Part shown: one piece after another, positions 894 through 26,853 of the stretch
How the letters are laid out: each line of letters opens with the position of its first letter
Position numbering within the stretch: position 1 is the first letter of the stretch
Source: a bacterium
GTDB lineage: Bacteria; Babelota; Babeliae; Babelales; Vermiphilaceae
DNA: 64,000 nt
NCBI GenBank assembly: GCA_021833825.1
Contig: JAKBEL010000021.1
Span: 525 to 64,524 of the forward strand
Reading direction: 5' to 3'
Position numbers and translations under genes: made by a program
Notes under the pieces: generated by a model
The model's database searches: none
The model's input: the letters and a program-made list of their open reading frames with translations, nothing else
What the model was told of the DNA's origin: nothing

Positions 894-1604
894 TTATATA
901 ATGATTCCATACATATTTTTCAGATCTTGAGCCAGTTTCTTGGCACCCTGTTTTTTATCAAATTGAATAGCAAGCAGTCCAGCTTTACGGGCAGCCTCAA
1001 CATTCTCTTTTTTATCATCAATAAAGAGAATATATTGCCCGTCTGCAGCATTGATCTTGTTTTTGAGCATTTCAAAATAACGTGGATCTGGTTTTTCGAT
1101 CGGATTTTTTACGCTATAATCAACGGTCATGCAATGTTTAATGAAGTTATCATTAAACAGTTCAGGAAATCTCGTTTTTTGGTCTTCAAAGAAAATAGTG
1201 CCGATGTTTGTTGCTGTATAGAACCTGAATCCTTGTGCATGCAGTTTTTTGTAAAGTTCTAATGTTTCAGGAATAATATCTTTCTGTTTTACACATGCAC
1301 GAAGAAATTCTGCAGGTTTTGTTAGCCCTTTGGCCATCCATTTAACATATTTGCGTTCATTATTTATGCGTTTAAAATGTGACCAACCTTTAAAAATAGA
1401 TTTCCAATCAGAATGCCATAGATAAAGGTGTACATTTCGTGGGCGCTGTACCATATTTCTTTTTAAAATTACATCATCAAGGTCGGTTGCAATAAGGGTG
1501 TTTGCAGGTGTTAATTGAATGACTGTGCTTTCACTGCATCCAGTGTTTAAAGCGATAGTCATGGTCAGTAATAGTACTGATAACAGTTTAGATGTCTGTA
1601 ACAT
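894..1604 (-). CDS. HAD-superfamily hydrolase with N-terminal leader (possible lipoprotein, non-canonical ...NTGC)
   Basis: ORF track 236 aa. Hydrophobic leader. HAD motif I-like ATDLDDVIL and motif IV-like LFIDDKKENVEAARKAG. Confidence 0.7.
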   Translation of the reverse strand: MLQTSKLLSVLLLTMTIALNTGCSESTVIQLTPANTLIATDLDDVILKRNMVQRPRNVHLYLWHSDWKSIFKGWSHFKRINNERKYVKWMAKGLTKPAEFLRACVKQKDIIPETLELYKKLHAQGFRFYTATNIGTIFFEDQKTRFPELFNDNFIKHCMTVDYSVKNPIEKPDPRYFEMLKNKINAADGQYILFIDDKKENVEAARKAGLLAIQFDKKQGAKKLAQDLKNMYGIII

Positions 1605-1685
1605 ATAATCTCCATTTTCAGGTTAATTTTTAATCTTATCGTTAATAATACCATTTGCAATGAAAATAGCAACTGGTGGCTAAAA

Positions 1686-1743
1686 AGAGGATTTTGCAGG
1701 TTTGGGCCCGACTTTCATTTCTAGAAGCAGTATTCTGCAGGGT
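1686..1743 (-). repeat. Decayed direct copy of the last ~18 codons of the PASTA gene (compare 3041-3095)
   Basis: Hand alignment: a gattttgcaggtttg core followed by gcccga, tttca, ttcta and aag blocks in the same order. Roughly 80-85% identical by eye. The copy contains in-frame stops. Confidence 0.7.
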
Positions 1744-1784
1744 AACAAAGCTGTTTCTATTATGGGGCAGTAGATGTGAGCGTC

Positions 1785-2948
1785 TTATATCACAGAAAAT
1801 GAGCTCCAGCTCTCAATATCGATACCTTTAGCCCGCATAGGCTCATTGCCGCCATAAACGATAAGGCCTTGTTGCTGCTTTGAAAGCTCTAACCAATAGT
1901 TAACGCTATCCAAGAAGCTTTTGTGAAATGTCATGCTAGCTTTGATTTCGATCGGCAACAGTTGGTTTTCTCGTTCAATAAGACAATCAACCTCATGGCC
2001 ATGACTATCCCTCCAAAAATAAATCGGTGGATTTTTAGCCTTATTATAAAATTGTTTAGCAATGTCGGTTATAATAAGATTTTCAAAAAGAGGGCCGCGC
2101 AAGGAGTGTTGTTGTAACTGATCTGCAGTGTTGATGTGTAATAATGAACAGGCAACTCCAGTATCATAAAAATATAACTTAGCACTTTTAGTAAGTCGTT
2201 TGTTAAAATTAGCATGATGCGGTTGCAAGAGATAGATAATATAACTTGCCTGTAAAATAGAAAGCCACGCATTGGCGGTTGAAACACTAATCCCACAATC
2301 AGATGCTAGTCCTGAAACATTCAATAATTGTCCGATACGTCCAGCGCATAGTCCTAAGAATTTTTTAAAAAGCACTAAATCGGCCACTTTGCTAATTGTT
2401 CGCACATCACGTTCTAAATAGGTTTGTATGTATGATGGATAAACATATTCTGGATCCAATGCAGCATTTGCAAAAATGCCTGGATATCCACCTTTGACAA
2501 TTGCATTCTCACTAAATTTTGCTTGTAAATTCGCATCAGCTATCTCTTTAAGGGATAAAGGCAAGAGGGTCAAAATTCCTACACGTCCTGCTAGTGATTG
2601 TGAAATAGCTTGATTCATAAGAAAGTTATGAGAACCTGTCAAAATAAAAAATCCTGGCCGTTTTTCCCGATCAACAATCACCTGAATATAAGAAAGCATA
2701 TCAGGGGCATTTTGAAACTCATCGATAATGACCCCTTTATGGACCAAGAGTCGTTCTAGAAATCCTCTTGGATCATTTAGCGCTATGCCAAGGATATCTA
2801 AATTTTCAAGGTTGACATAATAATAATCCTGAAATGCTTGTTGTGCTAATGTTGTTTTGCCCGATTGGCGTGGCCCTAGGAGCGCTACTACGGGGAAAAA
2901 TGAAGCGAACTTTTCCAATATAGGGAGCATCTCTCTTGTGATAAACAT
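1785..2948 (-). CDS. AAA+ ATPase with DUF4143-type C-terminal region
   Basis: Walker A GPRQSGKTT and Walker B-like IIDEFQ. Colinear along its whole length with the paralogue at 12533-13702 (more than half of residues identical by eye). Confidence 0.85.
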   Translation of the reverse strand: MFITREMLPILEKFASFFPVVALLGPRQSGKTTLAQQAFQDYYYVNLENLDILGIALNDPRGFLERLLVHKGVIIDEFQNAPDMLSYIQVIVDREKRPGFFILTGSHNFLMNQAISQSLAGRVGILTLLPLSLKEIADANLQAKFSENAIVKGGYPGIFANAALDPEYVYPSYIQTYLERDVRTISKVADLVLFKKFLGLCAGRIGQLLNVSGLASDCGISVSTANAWLSILQASYIIYLLQPHHANFNKRLTKSAKLYFYDTGVACSLLHINTADQLQQHSLRGPLFENLIITDIAKQFYNKAKNPPIYFWRDSHGHEVDCLIERENQLLPIEIKASMTFHKSFLDSVNYWLELSKQQQGLIVYGGNEPMRAKGIDIESWSSFSVI

Positions 2949-3034
2949 AATATATCCTCTGTGTAATTCACATACCCTACCTTATAAATTACACAAATTT
3001 GGGTATAAAGAAAAGAGTTTTTTGTTTAAGTACT

Positions 3035-3868
3035 TTAATGAAGAGATTTTGCAGGTTTGAGCCCGATTTTCAGTTCTACAAGTAGTTTTTCAGGCTCCAT
3101 GAGGTTCAAAACAGTTCCAGCTTTGGGGTGTTGATCAATGATATAATAGGTCTTGGATTGCTCAGGGGCTATATCGGTCTGATAATGGTTAATGCTATAT
3201 TTTGTCAGTATTGTAACAACAGATTCCAATGTTTTGCCCTTAAAATTGGGAAATATGACAAGATTATCTTTTTCTTGAGCAATATAGCAGATCAAAGATC
3301 TGTTCTTAATTGGTTGACCTGCTGATGGCCATTGGCCAAAGCAGTGGCCAACTGGGTAAGAGTAGGAGATGGTATGGAATGTCGGTTTTAGGCCGATAGC
3401 TTGAGTGGTCTTTCTTATCTGGTCTATTGAGAGCCCAATGCATGAAGGGGCAACTTCTGCAGAGGGCTTTTCAGATATGACAATATAGACAGTCTGATTC
3501 TTTTTGATTAATCTGCCAGCTTGTGGCCTTTGATGAAGTACCGTTGCAGACGGCAGCCCAGTATCTTTTTTGATCTGAATAATTTCAGGATGAAGTTGAT
3601 AACTGGAGAGTAGTTTGGTCGCCTCAACTAAATGCATGCCGGTAATATCTGGGGTGATAAAGCAGGGATAGCCAAATAGTATATGTAGTGCAAAATAGGT
3701 AGAGATAAAGAGAACAAAAGGTGTGATCCATAGATGAGGATAGAGTGTTGATAGCTTCACAATTACACCATAATGTTCCAGAAGATATTGAAATTCATGG
3801 ATTGGCTGACAATAAGCCGGATTCTGTTCTACATTATCTGTAGTGGCAACCATTAATCTATGCAGCAT
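3035..3868 (-). CDS. Membrane-anchored protein with three PASTA-like repeats
   Basis: ORF track 277 aa. One TM segment (LWITPFVLFISTYFALHILFG) followed by three ~65-aa repeats (PDITGMHLVEATKLL..., PSCIGLSIDQIRKTT..., PNFKGKTLESVVTIL...). The first ~22 codons overlap the 3' part of rnpB, so the true start is probably internal, e.g. GTG at 3760. Confidence 0.7.
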   Translation of the reverse strand: MLHRLMVATTDNVEQNPAYCQPIHEFQYLLEHYGVIVKLSTLYPHLWITPFVLFISTYFALHILFGYPCFITPDITGMHLVEATKLLSSYQLHPEIIQIKKDTGLPSATVLHQRPQAGRLIKKNQTVYIVISEKPSAEVAPSCIGLSIDQIRKTTQAIGLKPTFHTISYSYPVGHCFGQWPSAGQPIKNRSLICYIAQEKDNLVIFPNFKGKTLESVVTILTKYSINHYQTDIAPEQSKTYYIIDQHPKAGTVLNLMEPEKLLVELKIGLKPAKSLH

Positions 3869-4160
3869 ACCCGCGTGTCAAAACCGGAATAGACAACCGT
3901 TCACGCTATTTGCCTTGCTCCAGATAGGGTTTACCCCGCATGGCTATTGCTAGACATACTCGTGCGCTTTTACCACACGTTTTCACCCTTACCAATGCGC
4001 ATAAAAACATATAAGCATGGCGGTTATTTTCTGTGGCACTTTCCATGGGCTTGCGCCCTCCTTAGTTGATGTTTTGCAACATCTCCGAAGGTATCTTGTT
4101 TATTGGGAGTCCGGACTTTCCTCTTATGACTTTCTCATAAGCGATTGCCTAGTCTGCCAA
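3802..4160 (-). ncRNA. rnpB: RNase P RNA, bacterial type A
   Basis: Minus strand carries AGAGGAAAGTCCGGACTCC (P4 5' strand), CACAGAAAATAACCGCC, GGGTGAAAACGTGTGGTAAAAGCGCACGAG and ACAGAATCCGGCTTATTGTCAGCC (P4 3' strand plus P1). The terminal TTGGCAGAC / GTCAGCCAA segments can pair as P1. Length is about 360 nt. Confidence 0.9.
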
Positions 4161-4596
4161 TTCCATGAATTTTCAAAGATATAATCAATAACACTAATAT
4201 ATTAACACAAAATTGCCACACAGTATAGCTTAGGGGTAGCTGTCCGATATTCAGCAAGCGGTAGGTTATCTCTCTCTCTATTACTAAAAAGAGTGCCAAC
4301 AGGAAAGCTGGAACAAAAAAGCTCTTTGTGAACCATTTTTTTGCCACTATAGTGAGTATGATGATAGGTATCATGCTGATATAGATGATGCCAAAGTGGC
4401 TATAGTGGGTAAATGAATAGAGCCCCAATAGTATGAGAGCTATCAAGAGTTGGCCAGTGATTGCAGGTGCATTATATGATGTTATCAAAAACCAACAGAG
4501 TAGGCCTTTTAGCAAACGGTAATGCAGTAATAGGTTGATGTTGTAATCGAATAGAAAGAGGAAAATAGGAATCAAAGTATAATTGCTCCGCTTCAT
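4135..4596 (-). CDS. Polytopic membrane protein, function unknown
   Basis: ORF track 153 aa with 4-5 hydrophobic segments and no recognisable motif. Its last ~8 codons overlap the predicted rnpB 5' end. Confidence 0.55.
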   Translation of the reverse strand: MKRSNYTLIPIFLFLFDYNINLLLHYRLLKGLLCWFLITSYNAPAITGQLLIALILLGLYSFTHYSHFGIIYISMIPIIILTIVAKKWFTKSFFVPAFLLALFLVIEREITYRLLNIGQLPLSYTVWQFCVNILVLLIISLKIHGIGRLGNRL

Positions 4597-12411: not shown

Positions 12412-12456
12412 AATTCTATGCAAATCCAACTTTCAAAGTTGGATTTGCATAGAATT
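12412..12456. promoter_or_regulatory. 45-bp perfect palindrome (22-bp arms) in the divergent promoter region; candidate operator
   Basis: aattctatgcaaatccaacttt-c-aaagttggatttgcatagaatt. A third half-site-like caaatccgactt overlaps the -35 candidate at 12470. Confidence 0.55.
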
Positions 12457-12469
12457 ATAAAGTGATCTG

Positions 12470-12497
12470 TTGACAAATCCGACTTGAATTGTAGACT
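12470..12497 (+). promoter_or_regulatory. Candidate sigma-70-type promoter of the DUF4143 ATPase gene
   Basis: TTGACA (12470-12475), a 16-nt spacer, then TAGACT (12492-12497). SD AAAGGAGG lies upstream of the ATG at 12533. Confidence 0.4.
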
Positions 12498-12532
12498 TTA
12501 CTAATAAAGGGGTATAAATCTAAAGGAGGTCT

Positions 12533-13702
12533 ATGTTCATAAAAAGAGCGATTGCACAGGATATTCTTGAAGCGGCAAAGCATTTTTCAGCTTTAGCTGT
12601 TCTGGGGCCACGCCAATCGGGTAAAACAACGTTAGTACGTAATGTTTTTACAAACCATGCATATGTCAATTTAGAGCATCCCAAGACCAGAGATTTTGCG
12701 GTTGCAGATCCGGAAGGGTTTTTTGAACAGTATCAGAATGAATATGGGCTTATTATAGATGAGTTTCAGCATGTGCCTGAACTACTATCCTATATTCAGA
12801 TCTTTATTGATGAACGCAAAAGGCCCGGTTATTTCATTTTAACCGGTTCGCAAAACTTTTTAATGAATGAAAAGATCTCGCAAACATTAGCAGGTCGGAT
12901 CTCTATTCATACCTTATTGCCACTCTCTATTGGCGAGTTAAAAGAGGCAGCATTATTGCCACAATCACCAGAAGAACTTATCTGGAAGGGTTGTTATCCA
13001 TCGGTCTATATCGATAAAGAGCTCTCTCCAGAACGTTGGTATCAGAACTATATTCAAACCTATCTTGAGCGTGATGTTCGGCAATTAAAACAGGTTGAGG
13101 ATTTGCAACTGTTCAGAACTTTCGTGCAACTGTGTGCAGGGCGCGTTGGGCAGCTGTTAAATTTATCTTCACTTGGTAATGATTGTGGTGTTAGTGACAC
13201 CACTGCACGGCGTTGGATAGCGTTATTAGAGGCAAGTTATATTATTGTTCTATTGCAGCCATATCATAAGAATTTTAATAAACGGATCACAAAAAGCCCA
13301 AAGCTCTATTTTGTTGATACCGGTCTTGCATGTTCATTGCTTAATATTCAAGAGAATAGCGTTACTGATCATTATCTACGCGGTGGGCTGTTTGAGAATA
13401 TGATGATTGTTGATTTCTATAAACGAGCCTATAATCAAGGTGGTGTGCCACATTTCTATTTCTGGCGTGATCAAACTCATGAGATCGATCTTATTATTGA
13501 TCGTGGGACCAGTATCTATCCGGCAGAGATTAAATCGAGCAGGACCATCTCACAATCATTTTTCAGTAATGTTCAATATTTGGCGCAACTGGCTGCACTG
13601 AATCCAAAAGATAATGTTATTATTTACACAGGAGATGAGCATCAGAAGCGCACCATGGGGCAAGTGATTGGCTGGCGTGATGTCGATTCGATCGTTATAT
13701 GA
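12533..13702 (+). CDS. AAA+ ATPase with DUF4143-type C-terminal region (paralogue of 1785-2948)
   Basis: Walker A GPRQSGKTT and IIDEFQ. A strong SD precedes the start. Confidence 0.85.
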   Translation: MFIKRAIAQDILEAAKHFSALAVLGPRQSGKTTLVRNVFTNHAYVNLEHPKTRDFAVADPEGFFEQYQNEYGLIIDEFQHVPELLSYIQIFIDERKRPGYFILTGSQNFLMNEKISQTLAGRISIHTLLPLSIGELKEAALLPQSPEELIWKGCYPSVYIDKELSPERWYQNYIQTYLERDVRQLKQVEDLQLFRTFVQLCAGRVGQLLNLSSLGNDCGVSDTTARRWIALLEASYIIVLLQPYHKNFNKRITKSPKLYFVDTGLACSLLNIQENSVTDHYLRGGLFENMMIVDFYKRAYNQGGVPHFYFWRDQTHEIDLIIDRGTSIYPAEIKSSRTISQSFFSNVQYLAQLAALNPKDNVIIYTGDEHQKRTMGQVIGWRDVDSIVI

Positions 13703-23464: not shown

Positions 23465-24547
23465 ATGACGTTCTGTCAGGATGGGGGTAAACTTTTAAGT
23501 GCTTTCATGAAACATACCTGTAATCGTATCTATCCGTATGTGCAAAACGGACGATTTTATAACTATCCCAATGAAATTCCGGAAGGGTTCTTCTTTCGGT
23601 CATTGTATATTTATTTAAAATCACATGTGAACAGGTTGTTTTATCATCCACAGACGCAAGACTGGATTGTGAAGCCGAATGTTCCTCAAAGAAGTATAGT
23701 TCCCATTATCACCTGGATAGGCCATTCTACATTCTTAATACAGGTTGCAGGTTTTAATATTATTACCGACCCTATATTTGGCAATGCGACCACTCTGTTT
23801 CCTCGTATATTAAAGCCGGGGCTTGAATTGGCGCAATTGCCACCGATTGATTATGTTCTTATCTCTCACAATCATCTTGATCATATGGATGCTCCCGCTC
23901 TCTTTGTATTTAAAAATGATCATCCTCAGTGCTCTTATTTAGTCCCTTTGGGTGATAAAAAATGGTTCGATGAGCGTGGGTTTTCAAATGTTCGTGAATA
24001 TACTTGGTGGCAACAGGATAGTTTTTCTCTTGAAAATGAGCATGTCACCTTTACTTTTTTACCCGCCTTTCATTGGTCACAGCGGGGAATGTTTGATAAA
24101 AATAGGTCTTTGTGGGGCAGTTGGATGATTGATGTTGGGGGCAAGCGTATCTATTTTGCGGGCGATACAGCCTATACGCGCCATTTTAAGGTGATAGGGC
24201 AGGAGTTTGATCGTATTGATTGTGCTTTAATGCCTATCGGTCCTTGTGAGCCACATAAATGGATGAAGTTTTCTCATGCCAATGCTAAAGAATCATATCA
24301 AGGATTTCTTGATCTTCGTGCTCATCATTTTATTCCTATGCATTGGGGCACATTCTATTTTGGAACAGACACATTTGAGACGTCTCTTAAAGAGTTAGAA
24401 TCTGTGTGGAATAGTCTCCATCAAGATAGATTGTCTCAAAAGCGATTACATATAATGCATGTTGGCCAAACAATGCCATTGCCGACTAGTCAGCCCCCTG
24501 AATTAGAGAATGATCAATTGGTGGCAGGTTCTGTTGACGCAGCATAA
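23465..24547 (+). CDS. MBL-fold metallo-hydrolase, NAPE-PLD-like
   Basis: TWIGHSTFLIQ, ITDPIF and ISHNHLDHMD. An alternative ATG lies at 23507. Confidence 0.8.
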   Translation: MTFCQDGGKLLSAFMKHTCNRIYPYVQNGRFYNYPNEIPEGFFFRSLYIYLKSHVNRLFYHPQTQDWIVKPNVPQRSIVPIITWIGHSTFLIQVAGFNIITDPIFGNATTLFPRILKPGLELAQLPPIDYVLISHNHLDHMDAPALFVFKNDHPQCSYLVPLGDKKWFDERGFSNVREYTWWQQDSFSLENEHVTFTFLPAFHWSQRGMFDKNRSLWGSWMIDVGGKRIYFAGDTAYTRHFKVIGQEFDRIDCALMPIGPCEPHKWMKFSHANAKESYQGFLDLRAHHFIPMHWGTFYFGTDTFETSLKELESVWNSLHQDRLSQKRLHIMHVGQTMPLPTSQPPELENDQLVAGSVDAA

Positions 24548-24801
24548 TATGTCTCTTGGCCCAAAAAATCTGATGGCACATGTCGAATAAATTCAGATGG
24601 CGAAATTCAAGTTTTGCCCAAATTGGGTGAAGTTTTAGTGTGAGTGTGCCCAATGAGCAGAGGCACTTAAAGGTTGTAGAGTCTTTTTTCTCCGCATAAA
24701 AATTGTTTATATGTGATCAATAAAAAAAAATGGACCATTTTCCTTTCACATGGTATTATGGTTATGTTAATAAATATGTATCATGTTATACAGGATCGAT
24801 T

Positions 24802-25932
24802 ATGAAAAAATATATAGTAGCATTATTGCTTATTCAAGCAGTTCAATTGCTCAACGCAGCAGCTGATGAGGAAGATACTCCTGTTAATCCCCATCAGTTA
24901 TTGGGAGAGGCAGTTGCCCATTCTATTCATTTTTTTGCTCCAGCATCTTATTTGGGTGAACCATATGTAAGAAAATTATTATTAGGTGATCGCTTTCCTG
25001 TCCACAATGCGGTTGAACAAGGATCTCTCTTTAGGCTGGCATATTTTGTGTCCAGAGGGTTTGATTTGGAAGAAAGAGATAATATGGCATGGCGCACTCC
25101 ACTTCATAAGGCCTCTTGGTGGCTATTTGATAGAGATGTTCTGCTTTTTCTATTAAAAAAGGGCGCCGATGTTAACGCTCGTAATTATTTTGGGCACACA
25201 CCCATTTTTGAAGTTATTATGCAAGGCAACCCGGGTGGTGCGCAGTTGCTGTTAGAGCATGGTGCTGATCTTAATGCTCGAGATAATAGTGGCCGCACAC
25301 CATTTTTTCATGCGCGCAATGTGCCTACTTTTAGATGGTTACTAGAAAACGGTGCCGATGTTAATGTTCGAGATGATCATGACTGCACACCACTTTTTGG
25401 AGCTATTGAGCGCCTCAGGGGGCGAGATTGTGTTGAATTTTTACTGCAAAATGGTGCCGGTGTTAATGTTCGGGATACTTCTGGTAATACACCGCTTGGT
25501 TTTGCCATTTCAACGTATGGTAGAGCTCGGCTTGACTCAGAGCCTCTCTATTCTATTGTGCAACTATTAGTAGAAAGCGATGCTGATGTTAACGCTCAAG
25601 ATAATAATGGTTGCACTCCATTGCATAAAGCTGCATCTGTAGGGAATCTGCCTTGTGTAAAGCTCTTGCTAAAACAAAAAAATATTAATATTTATCTGAC
25701 GGATGCAGATCAAAAGAGTCCAGCACATTATGCTTTGAGAGGCATCAGAGATTGGAATAAAGATGATTATCTTCAGATTCTACAAGCATTAGCCCAAGAA
25801 GGCGCACCTCTTTCAGATGCTTCTTATCAGAATGATTTTGATCCACTGATTGAAGATGGAATAATTACGCAAGAAGAGTGGACTGATATTATGAGCTGGG
25901 TAGTTGAAGATGTTAAAATGGCGCAAGATTAA
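24802..25932 (+). CDS. Ankyrin-repeat protein with signal-type leader
   Basis: Repeated G.TPL...A...G....V..LL..GADVNA modules (about 7). Start taken at MKKYIVALLLIQAVQLLNAAADE, which is the same as in the downstream paralogue; the ORF-track start is 24730. Confidence 0.85.
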   Translation: MKKYIVALLLIQAVQLLNAAADEEDTPVNPHQLLGEAVAHSIHFFAPASYLGEPYVRKLLLGDRFPVHNAVEQGSLFRLAYFVSRGFDLEERDNMAWRTPLHKASWWLFDRDVLLFLLKKGADVNARNYFGHTPIFEVIMQGNPGGAQLLLEHGADLNARDNSGRTPFFHARNVPTFRWLLENGADVNVRDDHDCTPLFGAIERLRGRDCVEFLLQNGAGVNVRDTSGNTPLGFAISTYGRARLDSEPLYSIVQLLVESDADVNAQDNNGCTPLHKAASVGNLPCVKLLLKQKNINIYLTDADQKSPAHYALRGIRDWNKDDYLQILQALAQEGAPLSDASYQNDFDPLIEDGIITQEEWTDIMSWVVEDVKMAQD

Positions 25933-26004
25933 GAGAGTTCTTGTAAAACTACCATCTCATTATTCTGTTTAAAAAAAGATACATTTTATTATATAAGGTC
26001 GATT

Positions 26005-26685
26005 ATGAAAAAATATATAGTAGCATTATTGCTCATTCAGACAGTTCAATTGCTCAACGCAGCAGCTGATGATGAGGGTCTTTCTGTAGATATTGCGTGT
26101 TTATCAATAAAAAATGGTGCAGATATTGATGCTCGAGATAATTTTGGCCACACACGACTTTTTAAAGCTGTTTTAGGATATGATGAAGATCTCGTTCAGT
26201 CTTTACTAGCAAATGGCGCCGATGTTAATGCTCGGGACGTATCTGGCAACACTCCGCTTATTGCTGCGATTTCTGCTGTTTATCCGGATCAAAATTATTA
26301 TGGAGTTATTCTGGAATTGTTGATAGCAAAAGGCGCCGATATTAACAGTCAGGATAATTATGGTTACACTCCGCTACATCAAGCACTATCTTTTCGATAT
26401 CTGCCTTGCGTGCTACTTCTTTTAGAACAAGAAAATATTAATATTGATCTTAAAAGTAAATATGACGAGAGACCGATAGATTGCGTTTTGAATAGTTACT
26501 TCTGTTGGAAGAAAGATGATTATCTTCAGATTCTACAAGCATTTGCCCAAAGAGGCGCACCTCTTTCAGATGCTTCTTATCAGAATGATTTTGATCGATT
26601 GATTGAAGATGGAATAATTACGCAAGAAGAGCGGGCTGATATTATGAGCTGGGTAGTTGAAGATGTTAAAATGGCGCAAGATTAA
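26005..26685 (+). CDS. Ankyrin-repeat protein, shorter tandem paralogue
   Basis: The leader and the last ~60 aa (KDDYLQILQA..APLSDASYQNDFD.LIEDGIITQEE..DIMSWVVEDVKMAQD) are nearly identical to 24802-25932. The central ANK repeats differ. Confidence 0.85.
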   Translation: MKKYIVALLLIQTVQLLNAAADDEGLSVDIACLSIKNGADIDARDNFGHTRLFKAVLGYDEDLVQSLLANGADVNARDVSGNTPLIAAISAVYPDQNYYGVILELLIAKGADINSQDNYGYTPLHQALSFRYLPCVLLLLEQENINIDLKSKYDERPIDCVLNSYFCWKKDDYLQILQAFAQRGAPLSDASYQNDFDRLIEDGIITQEERADIMSWVVEDVKMAQD

Positions 26686-26776
26686 GAGAGCTCTTGTAAA
26701 ACTACCATTTATATTCGATACTTCATTAAATGAGTTGGAGATATTGTGGGGGCAACTCAAGAGGGGTGTATTGTTA

Positions 26777-26853
26777 TAAAAACGATTGCCTATCATGCAT
26801 GTTGGTCAAACCATAGCGATGACAGATCTTGAACTTATAGATAAAGCATTCAT
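26777..26853 (+). pseudogene. Decayed copy of the 3' end of the MBL-fold hydrolase gene (compare 24437-24520)
   Basis: Translates as KRLPIMHVGQTIAMTDLELIDKA..., versus KRLHIMHVGQTMPLPTSQPPELENDQL at the real gene end. DNA is about 75-80% identical by eye with one gap. It abuts the IS left inverted repeat. Confidence 0.65.

Follow-up and report, generated by a model that had tools for sequence, protein, structure and literature searches.

Duplicated gene ends bracket a DUF4143 ATPase cassette downstream of a PASTA gene, and other inserts, in a Dependentiae genome

We analysed a 64,000-nucleotide stretch of a bacterial genome, hereafter the window (positions 525 to 64,524 of contig JAKBEL010000021.1, assembly GCA_021833825.1; C7:525-64524 in our contig numbering), and describe a direct repeat near its left end, where the 3′ end of a gene for a PASTA-domain membrane protein recurs on the far side of a gene for an AAA/DUF4143 ATPase. 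The host is an amoeba-associated, intracellular bacterium of the Dependentiae (TM6) with a very compact genome (1.23 Mb, 37% GC); this contig is also publicly available in assembly GCA_027350885.1. Every gene at the left end of the window lies on the minus strand, and in the direction of transcription the order is a small membrane protein gene (4135-4596), the RNase P RNA gene (3798-4160), the PASTA gene (3035..3760; three Pfam PASTA matches, E=1.9e-20; stop codon TAA at 3037-3035), the ATPase gene (1785..2948), a HAD-family hydrolase gene (894..1604; Pfam Hydrolase) and a histone-deacetylase-family (HDAC) gene (1-867). The PASTA gene, the target of the insertion described below, has orthologues in 37 of 41 relatives. 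It likely starts at the GTG at 3760, because the longest open reading frame (ORF) call extends as far as 3868 and so overlaps the RNase P RNA gene by ~70 nt (3798-3868).

Formal alignment confirmed the direct repeat noticed in a sequence-only reading of this DNA, and placed it within a few bases of the coordinates given there. A repeat search paired 1690-1734 with 3045-3089 (45 nt, 87% ungapped identity), and Smith-Waterman alignment paired 1685-1734 with 3041-3089 (50 columns, 86%) at a score of 63, whereas 2000 shuffled comparisons averaged 16 and never scored above 30; under lenient gapped alignment the homology spans ~1680-1775 versus ~3035-3130 (score 80, shuffle maximum 46). The proximal copy (core 3041..3089, minus strand) is the functional end of the PASTA gene and encodes ...EPEKLLVELKIGLKPAKS followed by a new end, LH and the stop. 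The distal copy (1680..1775, minus strand; core 1685-1734) begins about ten bases beyond the ATPase stop codon and reads ...CRILLLEMKVGPKPAKSSF before its own stop. It had been described as interrupted by in-frame stops, which is wrong: the homologous frame is open for 34 codons (1784->1680, minus strand), ends ...LLPCRILLLEMKVGPKPAKSSF, and closes with a TAG (1682-1680) where the real PASTA stop is homologous. What makes the distal copy a relic is the lack of a gene body and start; its reading frame is not disrupted. The longest exact match between the copies is 15 nt (GATTTTGCAGGTTTG) and the mismatches involve all bases, the event being too old for an attachment-site (att) core to be judged. 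No RNA structure or terminator-like site was found in the relic region (z=0.02). Exact-protein look-ups recovered the same arrangement from two other samples, ERZ27236853 and SRR17201898, 100% identical over 401 nt around the relic and with no polymorphism seen there in either. The relic frame is also in phase with the ATPase ORF, with only the ATPase stop between them (window 1680-1787; 3003-3107 in the related locus L035); this shared phase is probably chance, and read-through would add a tail of 34 amino acids.

A search with the PASTA protein gave nearer relatives (64-75% amino-acid identity) than the species-representative genomes (44%). Two related loci, L030 and L033, are empty sites at which the PASTA gene is followed directly by the HAD gene. 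In both, the PASTA tail ends in phenylalanine and stop (TTT TAG), and a conserved block, CCACCAGTTGCCATTT..CAAaTGGTATTATTA, then leads into the HAD gene. This block is a sigma-70-like promoter (TTGCCA, 16 nt, TATTAT); its window equivalent at 1672-1645 is the predicted native HAD promoter (1645..1672, minus strand), for which a consensus scan gave a -35 element TTGCTA, a 16-nt spacer with TG and a -10 element TATTAT. It begins 7 nt past the native PASTA stop, the TAG of the relic, and the TTGCCA...TATTAT block is conserved in L030, L033, L035 and the window. The relic, its TAG and the intergenic block of the window (CCACCAGTTGC.ATTT...TGGTATTATTA) are colinear with L030 and L033, and the distal copy thus follows their whole order of tail, TTT TAG, promoter block and HAD start; the functional copy matches these relatives only up to ..AAACCTGCAAA, after which come CAT TAA and the cassette spacer. 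A same-genus genome (G001) likewise has the PASTA gene directly before the HAD gene, 72 nt apart, and another (G002) has two small unrelated ORFs at this junction.

The ends of the gene differ accordingly between occupied and empty sites. The functional tails of all four occupied genomes (the window, L031, L035 and L032) end in histidine and stop (CAY TAR); a phenylalanine-stop ending is found at the empty sites L030 and L033 and, among the three relics, in all but that of L032, which ends in glutamine and stop (CAA TAG). Since tail, stop, promoter and HAD gene follow one another in the empty-site relatives just as they do from the distal copy onwards, this copy is the native gene end, which has kept its place, and the proximal copy is a replacement; natively, the HAD gene stands next downstream of the PASTA gene. 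The earlier proposal of an insertion footprint, in which an incoming segment supplies a new 3′ end and displaces the original, is therefore borne out: an uninterrupted PASTA-HAD junction exists in L030, L033 and G001, and the last PASTA codon supplied by the proximal copy is not the native one.

The insert, ~1776 to 3034 (1.3 kb), consists of an 86-nt spacer and one gene, in agreement with the earlier statement that the segment between the copies contains the ATPase gene only. The spacer, which forms the left end of the insert and holds the ATPase promoter region (2949..3034, minus strand), carries a palindromic operator-like site with arms TGTGTAATT (2960-2968) and AATTACACA (2987-2995) separated by 18 nt. 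L031 and L035 retain it, L032 has a remnant of it, and it also occurs in L036, where an orthologue lies in another genomic context. The cargo gene (1785..2948, minus strand) encodes 387 amino acids with Pfam matches to AAA_14 (residues 19-136, E=2.9e-28) and DUF4143 (residues 179-338, E=2.3e-49), and matches PADLOC model PDLC04790 (PDC-S01) over residues 2-372 (E=1.5e-96), which makes it a candidate single-gene defence system of that type. No methyltransferase accompanies these two domains in the insert, no NCBIfam family was found for the ATPase, and its sequence had no match among solved structures. The insert shows no compositional anomaly (GC 0.377 versus 0.372 for the window). It holds no transposase, no terminal inverted repeats were reported in the region, and, as had been observed before, no integrase or other tyrosine or serine recombinase lies between or next to the repeats.

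Comparison of the occupied relatives indicated that the insertion is old. Behind the same spacer and palindrome, L031 and L035 have orthologues of the ATPase (91% and 90% amino-acid identity), and at the right junction L035 shares with the window the presence of a relic (51 nt, 94% identical to the L035 tail). In L032 the spacer and palindrome persist as a remnant beside the functional tail, the cargo is now a PP2C phosphatase gene and a 145-aa ORF, and the relic is ~170 nt long and open for 55 codons; in L034 the ATPase gene abuts the next conserved gene and the HAD genes are gone. Synonymous divergence (dS) between the window and L031/L035 is 0.8-1.1 for the PASTA gene and 0.72-0.74 for the ATPase gene, and reaches 1.5-2.7 against L032; the ratio of non-synonymous to synonymous divergence (dN/dS) of the ATPase against L031 is ~0.06. 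Orthologues and remnants at a shared junction, together with dS of ~0.7-2, point to a cassette that entered before these lineages split and has since been inherited vertically under strong constraint.

A neutral copy this old should be unrecognisable. Nevertheless, the window relic differs from the window tail at only 6 of 42 core sites, compared with 10-16 core sites when it is set against the tails and relics of the other lineages. The window tail and relic share five exclusive derived bases, no other pair sharing more than two, and the relics of L035 and L032 are likewise nearest to their own tails. The distal copy has thus not simply decayed, as had been supposed; it and the functional tail have undergone concerted evolution. 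That each lineage duplicated its tail recently and independently is unlikely, because the right junction is common to the window and L035, and the economical reading is that gene conversion keeps tail and relic alike. Occupied and empty genomes are interleaved by divergence, L031 and L035 being nearer to the empty L033 than to the window; this pattern fits a loss in which the repeats recombine and the cassette is removed precisely, with a tree too weak to prove it, since the PASTA protein tree built to ask whether the occupied genomes form a clade gave no resolution within the six closest sequences. Separately, L031 and L035 are ~100% identical except for a patch of 79-93% identity running from mid-PASTA to the first ~100 nt of the ATPase gene (L031 950-1750), and the junction region therefore appears recombinationally active, with allelic replacement across the insertion junction.

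The arrangement is not confined to this locus. Comparison of the genome with itself turned up many gene 3′ ends that recur in non-coding DNA downstream. In a controlled scan of 1066 genes, we matched the terminal 120 nt of every gene, extended by 15 nt, to non-coding DNA within 8 kb, and recovered 20, 17 and 15 same-strand downstream tail copies at score thresholds of 36, 40 and 50, as against 0-4 in each of seven control arrangements (upstream, opposite strand, gene starts) and none in a reversed-sequence null. The same asymmetry was seen over 400 kb each of two other Dependentiae (G021, 7 versus 0-2; G011, 6 versus 0-4). A handful of the matches are plain tandem arrays, including paralogue arrays at C5 23.1-24.1 kb, C19 55.9-57.9 kb and C23 20-23 kb, and another dozen or so are inserts 0.8-5 kb long, which carry among other genes AbiEi/AbiEii, two Gp49-type (HigB-like) toxin/helix-turn-helix pairs, a DUF5674 pair, an IS5 transposase with a GNAT gene, an ATPase with a hydrolase, the HDAC gene and an ankyrin pair. 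The repeats range from 33 to 170 nt, are unrelated in sequence between sites, and in most footprints have their downstream edge ≤~10 nt from the stop codon. No footprint cargo contains a recombinase, no motif common to the cargo ends was visible by eye, and the three tyrosine recombinases of the genome (PF00589) lie only on contigs C14 and C19.

With 15-20 footprints against 0-4 in the control arrangements, the suggestion of a recurrent process holds. The second case cited for it, at 24437-26853, is real, although weaker than the PASTA locus: part of the 3′ end of an MBL-fold hydrolase gene (24430..24474, plus strand; gene 23465-24547) is repeated beyond two ankyrin genes as a gene-end relic (26770..26814, plus strand), 45 nt at 80% identity with a gapped score of 79 versus a shuffle maximum of 59. 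Immediately downstream of the PASTA locus, the last 16 codons of the HAD gene (893-941) are duplicated beyond the HDAC gene at C7:135-232, outside the window. That copy reads ..KLAQDLKNLYGITL and stop, followed by a degenerate HAD ribosome-binding site and start (MLQTKILSL and stop), which suggests that the secreted-type HDAC gene, too, was inserted, in this case into what had been a tandem of HAD genes. The youngest clear footprint, at C12:29005-30722, places AbiEi/AbiEii behind a GNAT gene between 128-nt repeats of 95% identity; none of the six differences in coding sequence changes an amino acid, and AbiEii takes its stop codon from within the relic.

Pooled over 14 footprints, 57 of 93 differences between tail and relic fall at third codon positions, and 48 of 93 (52%) are synonymous, compared with 22% expected under neutrality (p=4e-10). 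This synonymous excess suggests that in many footprints the copies were already diverged coding alleles when joined, that is, that the incoming DNA often brought its own gene-end allele. The PASTA pair itself differs by one synonymous and five non-synonymous changes, which fit decay since the last conversion, and its only donor-type mark is the histidine-stop ending.

Taken together, we consider it probable that the locus arose by insertion of a cassette through host recombination, which duplicated the PASTA tail and was followed by gene conversion and repeat-mediated loss. The comparisons show that, in an ancestor of the lineage, a 1.3-kb single-gene cassette (the ATPase with its operator and promoter) entered between the PASTA and HAD genes, duplicating the last 17-30 PASTA codons, or more in one relative. 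The distal copy stayed joined to the native stop, the HAD promoter and the HAD gene, and the proximal copy closes the PASTA frame with SLH-stop in place of SSF-stop. The incoming DNA, from a related strain, would have contained the cargo and, next to it, a stretch homologous to the upstream gene, and would have been joined by host recombination, through homology on the upstream side and through an illegitimate joint, or single crossover of a circle, on the other. Candidate routes are thus single-crossover, Campbell-type integration and homology-facilitated illegitimate recombination, the latter reportedly described by de Vries and Wackernagel in 2002 and by Prudhomme et al. in 2002; neither the ATPase nor a cassette integrase would do the joining. 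Afterwards, gene conversion would keep both copies alike, and recombination between them could remove the cassette without a trace of the insert, so accounting for empty sites among the interleaved relatives. The duplication would let both neighbours survive, one copy keeping the PASTA ORF and the other the HAD promoter region, and the scar would be seen because, in so compact a genome, only a junction-duplicating insertion leaves ORF and promoter intact.

Several observations weigh against this account. The focal pair, with its one synonymous and five non-synonymous differences, bears no direct sign of a donor allele beyond the histidine-stop ending. A one-sided anchor predicts duplicated gene starts as well, yet these are 4-5 times rarer, for which we can offer a selection argument only. 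Repeat edges within ~10 nt of the stop could mean real targeting of stop-codon regions. The proposed gene conversion draws on shared derived bases, and a clade of occupied genomes lacks support from the PASTA tree, which leaves repeated site-specific gain as a formal alternative. A broader version, which we regard as speculative and rather unlikely, holds that Dependentiae gain most of their accessory genes by this directional, recombinase-free route, the incoming DNA carrying an allelic gene end and the conversion-maintained pair acting as a loss switch. Were it true, the gene-end pair would be a built-in switch for precise cassette loss, possibly with circular release and re-entry, and would imply a mobile-cassette life cycle using host gene ends as attachment sites.

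Among the alternatives, the filling-in of a staggered break would produce a target-site duplication in the strict sense: the two copies would start out identical, and the distal one would then decay neutrally. No simpler origin for a directly repeated target can be named, and the mostly non-synonymous focal differences are what a decaying copy would show. The pooled differences speak otherwise: their 52% synonymous share exceeds the ~34% that we roughly estimate for duplication plus decay (z about 3.6), and also the 22% expected of purely neutral change. The GNAT/AbiE pair, at six synonymous to no non-synonymous differences, and the systematic difference between functional and native ends at the last codon also run counter to it; we consider this explanation unlikely. 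We know of no enzymology for overhangs of 33-170 nt. A transposon-type target-site duplication was set aside as well, the duplications being long and variable, with no transposase and no terminal inverted repeats reported.

A site-specific recombinase acting in trans could instead integrate circular cassettes at gene 3′ ends, the gene-end copy serving as the attachment site. The order of gene, new end, cargo and old end is the classical attL/attR picture, the repeat edges cluster downstream at the stop codon, tails are strongly preferred over heads, and one of the three genomic tyrosine recombinases (C14:14719-15105) is not obviously Xer-like. Against this stand the lack of a recombinase in every cargo, the variable length of the repeats and their unrelatedness between sites, the absence of a shared motif at the cargo ends by eye, the 15-nt limit on exact identity in the focal repeat, and pooled differences that resemble diverged alleles joined by homology. 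We therefore hold such an enzyme to be quite unlikely, and the integrase-type mechanism to which the footprint had been likened finds no agent in any cargo.

The ATPase gene might itself be a selfish mobile element, its nuclease-like domain cutting the target and inserting with a long target duplication in the manner of homing or restriction-modification (RM) genes. DUF4143 has been classed as a PD-(D/E)XK (restriction-endonuclease) fold (PMC3424549), the protein matches a defence candidate, and the same scar is enriched around RM genes (Furuta et al., PMC2853133). The number of DUF4143 genes swings from 0 to 15 among 40 relatives with ~1-Mb Dependentiae genomes, as is expected for accessory genes. 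The present genome holds 11 full copies and one fragment, among them a gene at 12533-13702 that is 50% identical to the focal ATPase. A check of 500-nt flanks at all 12 loci found repeats at the focal gene only, and a wider self-BLAST added the paralogue on contig C16. Two of 11 full genes are thus bracketed, compared with roughly 2% of all genes, and an 83% identical orthologue with the same operator occupies a different context in L036.

These points are outweighed in our view. The paralogues are 20-59% identical, which is no sign of recent spread inside the genome, nine of the 11 have no flanking repeat, and one, on C19, is itself a target with a displaced tail. The scar also brackets toxin-antitoxin, HDAC, ankyrin and IS/GNAT genes that have no nuclease, the focal gene has stayed at its site over dS of 0.7-2, and L036 has neither a flanking repeat nor a PASTA-tail remnant. 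The latter absence also led us to reject the idea of portable arms, by which the cassette would travel with copies of the PASTA tail. With paralogues at ≤59% identity and unrelated cargo bearing the same scar, the evidence says that the DUF4143 ATPase is cargo and not the agent of insertion, and a selfish ATPase is improbable. The earlier remark that such ATPases are commonly multi-copy is correct for this genome; the hint that they became so by spreading with this footprint fails.

Tandem duplication of PASTA tail plus ATPase with loss of the second ATPase, a possibility raised by the plain tandem arrays among the tail repeats, is hardly credible given that the relic is followed by the native stop and promoter and not by the left spacer of the cassette, and that colinearity with the empty sites in effect refutes it, as is chance similarity, which the shuffles and the relics at the homologous place in L035 and L032 exclude.

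Insertion with long target duplication of RM gene units is said to have been reported by Nobusato et al. in 2000. In the cases described by Furuta et al. in 2010, RM units without mobility genes are flanked by repeats of 46 to >400 bp, which often overlap the 3′ end of a neighbour and whose mechanism of origin is unknown (PMC2853133). The PASTA locus resembles these cases in its direct repeat of more than 30 bp (45-50 nt core, ~95 nt gapped), in the single occurrence of the repeated sequence at empty sites (L030, L033, G001), and in an insert below 20 kb (1.3 kb) with no mobility gene and defence-related cargo. It departs from them in that the cargo is not an RM system but a single ATPase, and elsewhere toxin-antitoxin, HDAC and ankyrin genes; in its intracellular Dependentiae host; and in the age of the insertion and the concerted evolution of its repeats. 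The genome-wide directional bias, towards tails and downstream copies, and the allelic signature go beyond that class as described. We conclude that the locus is a well-supported instance of a known, mechanistically unexplained insertion class, with cargo other than R and M genes.

Two further systems offer partial parallels. Orphan 3′ ends of Rhs, CDI (contact-dependent inhibition) and T6SS (type VI secretion system) genes have been ascribed to displacement by homology-facilitated illegitimate recombination (Kirchberger et al. 2017, PMC5361080). Incoming DNA is anchored there through homology to the upstream gene and delivers a new 3′ end along with cargo. There too the old 3′ end is kept downstream as an orphan, the new end is joined in frame and no integrase is involved; however, the new end in those genes is a different toxin tip, whereas here old and new ends are homologues of nearly equal value, and the cargo, under a promoter of its own, is a gene apart. 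Integrative elements at gene and tRNA 3′ ends share the succession of target gene, replacement end, element and displaced original end, but differ from the present case, which has no integrase, no apparent conserved core and a variable duplication length. As for the cargo, the full-length profile match and both Pfam domains place it alongside the PDC-S01/COG1373 AAA ATPases with a C-terminal PD-(D/E)XK domain.

In the literature searched, we found no functional study of PDC-S01/DUF4143 ATPases and no paper combining Dependentiae with such repeats. The uptake of defence, toxin-antitoxin and effector-like genes by compact obligate intracellular genomes is poorly understood, and the PASTA-HAD junction provides a dated comparative example in which empty, occupied and cargo-swapped versions of one site are available. 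What is new is the presence of this insertion class in a phylum where it was previously undescribed, together with the concerted evolution of the relic, the directional bias and the allelic signature. Genome-wide counts identify the gene-end relic as the usual trace left by gene gain, both here and in two other Dependentiae genomes, and the codon-position signature argues that homology to the upstream gene guides incoming DNA, a testable hypothesis also for long target duplications of the RM type.

Within the ATPase family, each of the 11 full DUF4143 genes has a private palindrome or direct-repeat motif within ~100 nt before its start (window 2960-2995 and 12412-12532; contigs C5, C11, C12, C16, C19 and C22), so that every paralogue has its own upstream site. 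The focal motif, TGTGTAATT-N18-AATTACACA, is kept in orthologues down to 83% amino-acid identity, even in the different context of L036. This suggests that DUF4143 genes have gene-specific operators, perhaps bound by the ATPase itself. As long-lived cargo under strong purifying selection, with private operator-like sites, these ATPases offer an entry to the function of a very common family.

Two other repeat arrangements were seen elsewhere in the genome. A promoter/leader block of ~110-185 nt stands upstream of three minus-strand genes on contig C3 (933-1117, 2095-2206 and 7297-7480), near the only reverse transcriptase of the genome (C3:7580-8893); its mismatches are not adenine-specific, so it is not a diversity-generating retroelement, and such an element was also rejected for the PASTA repeat, the sole reverse transcriptase being on C3 and the focal mismatches involving all bases. 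At C1:40556-41371, the 5′ half of tRNA-Arg(CCT) and 49 nt upstream of it are duplicated (100 nt, 97%) beyond a small GIY-YIG nuclease gene.

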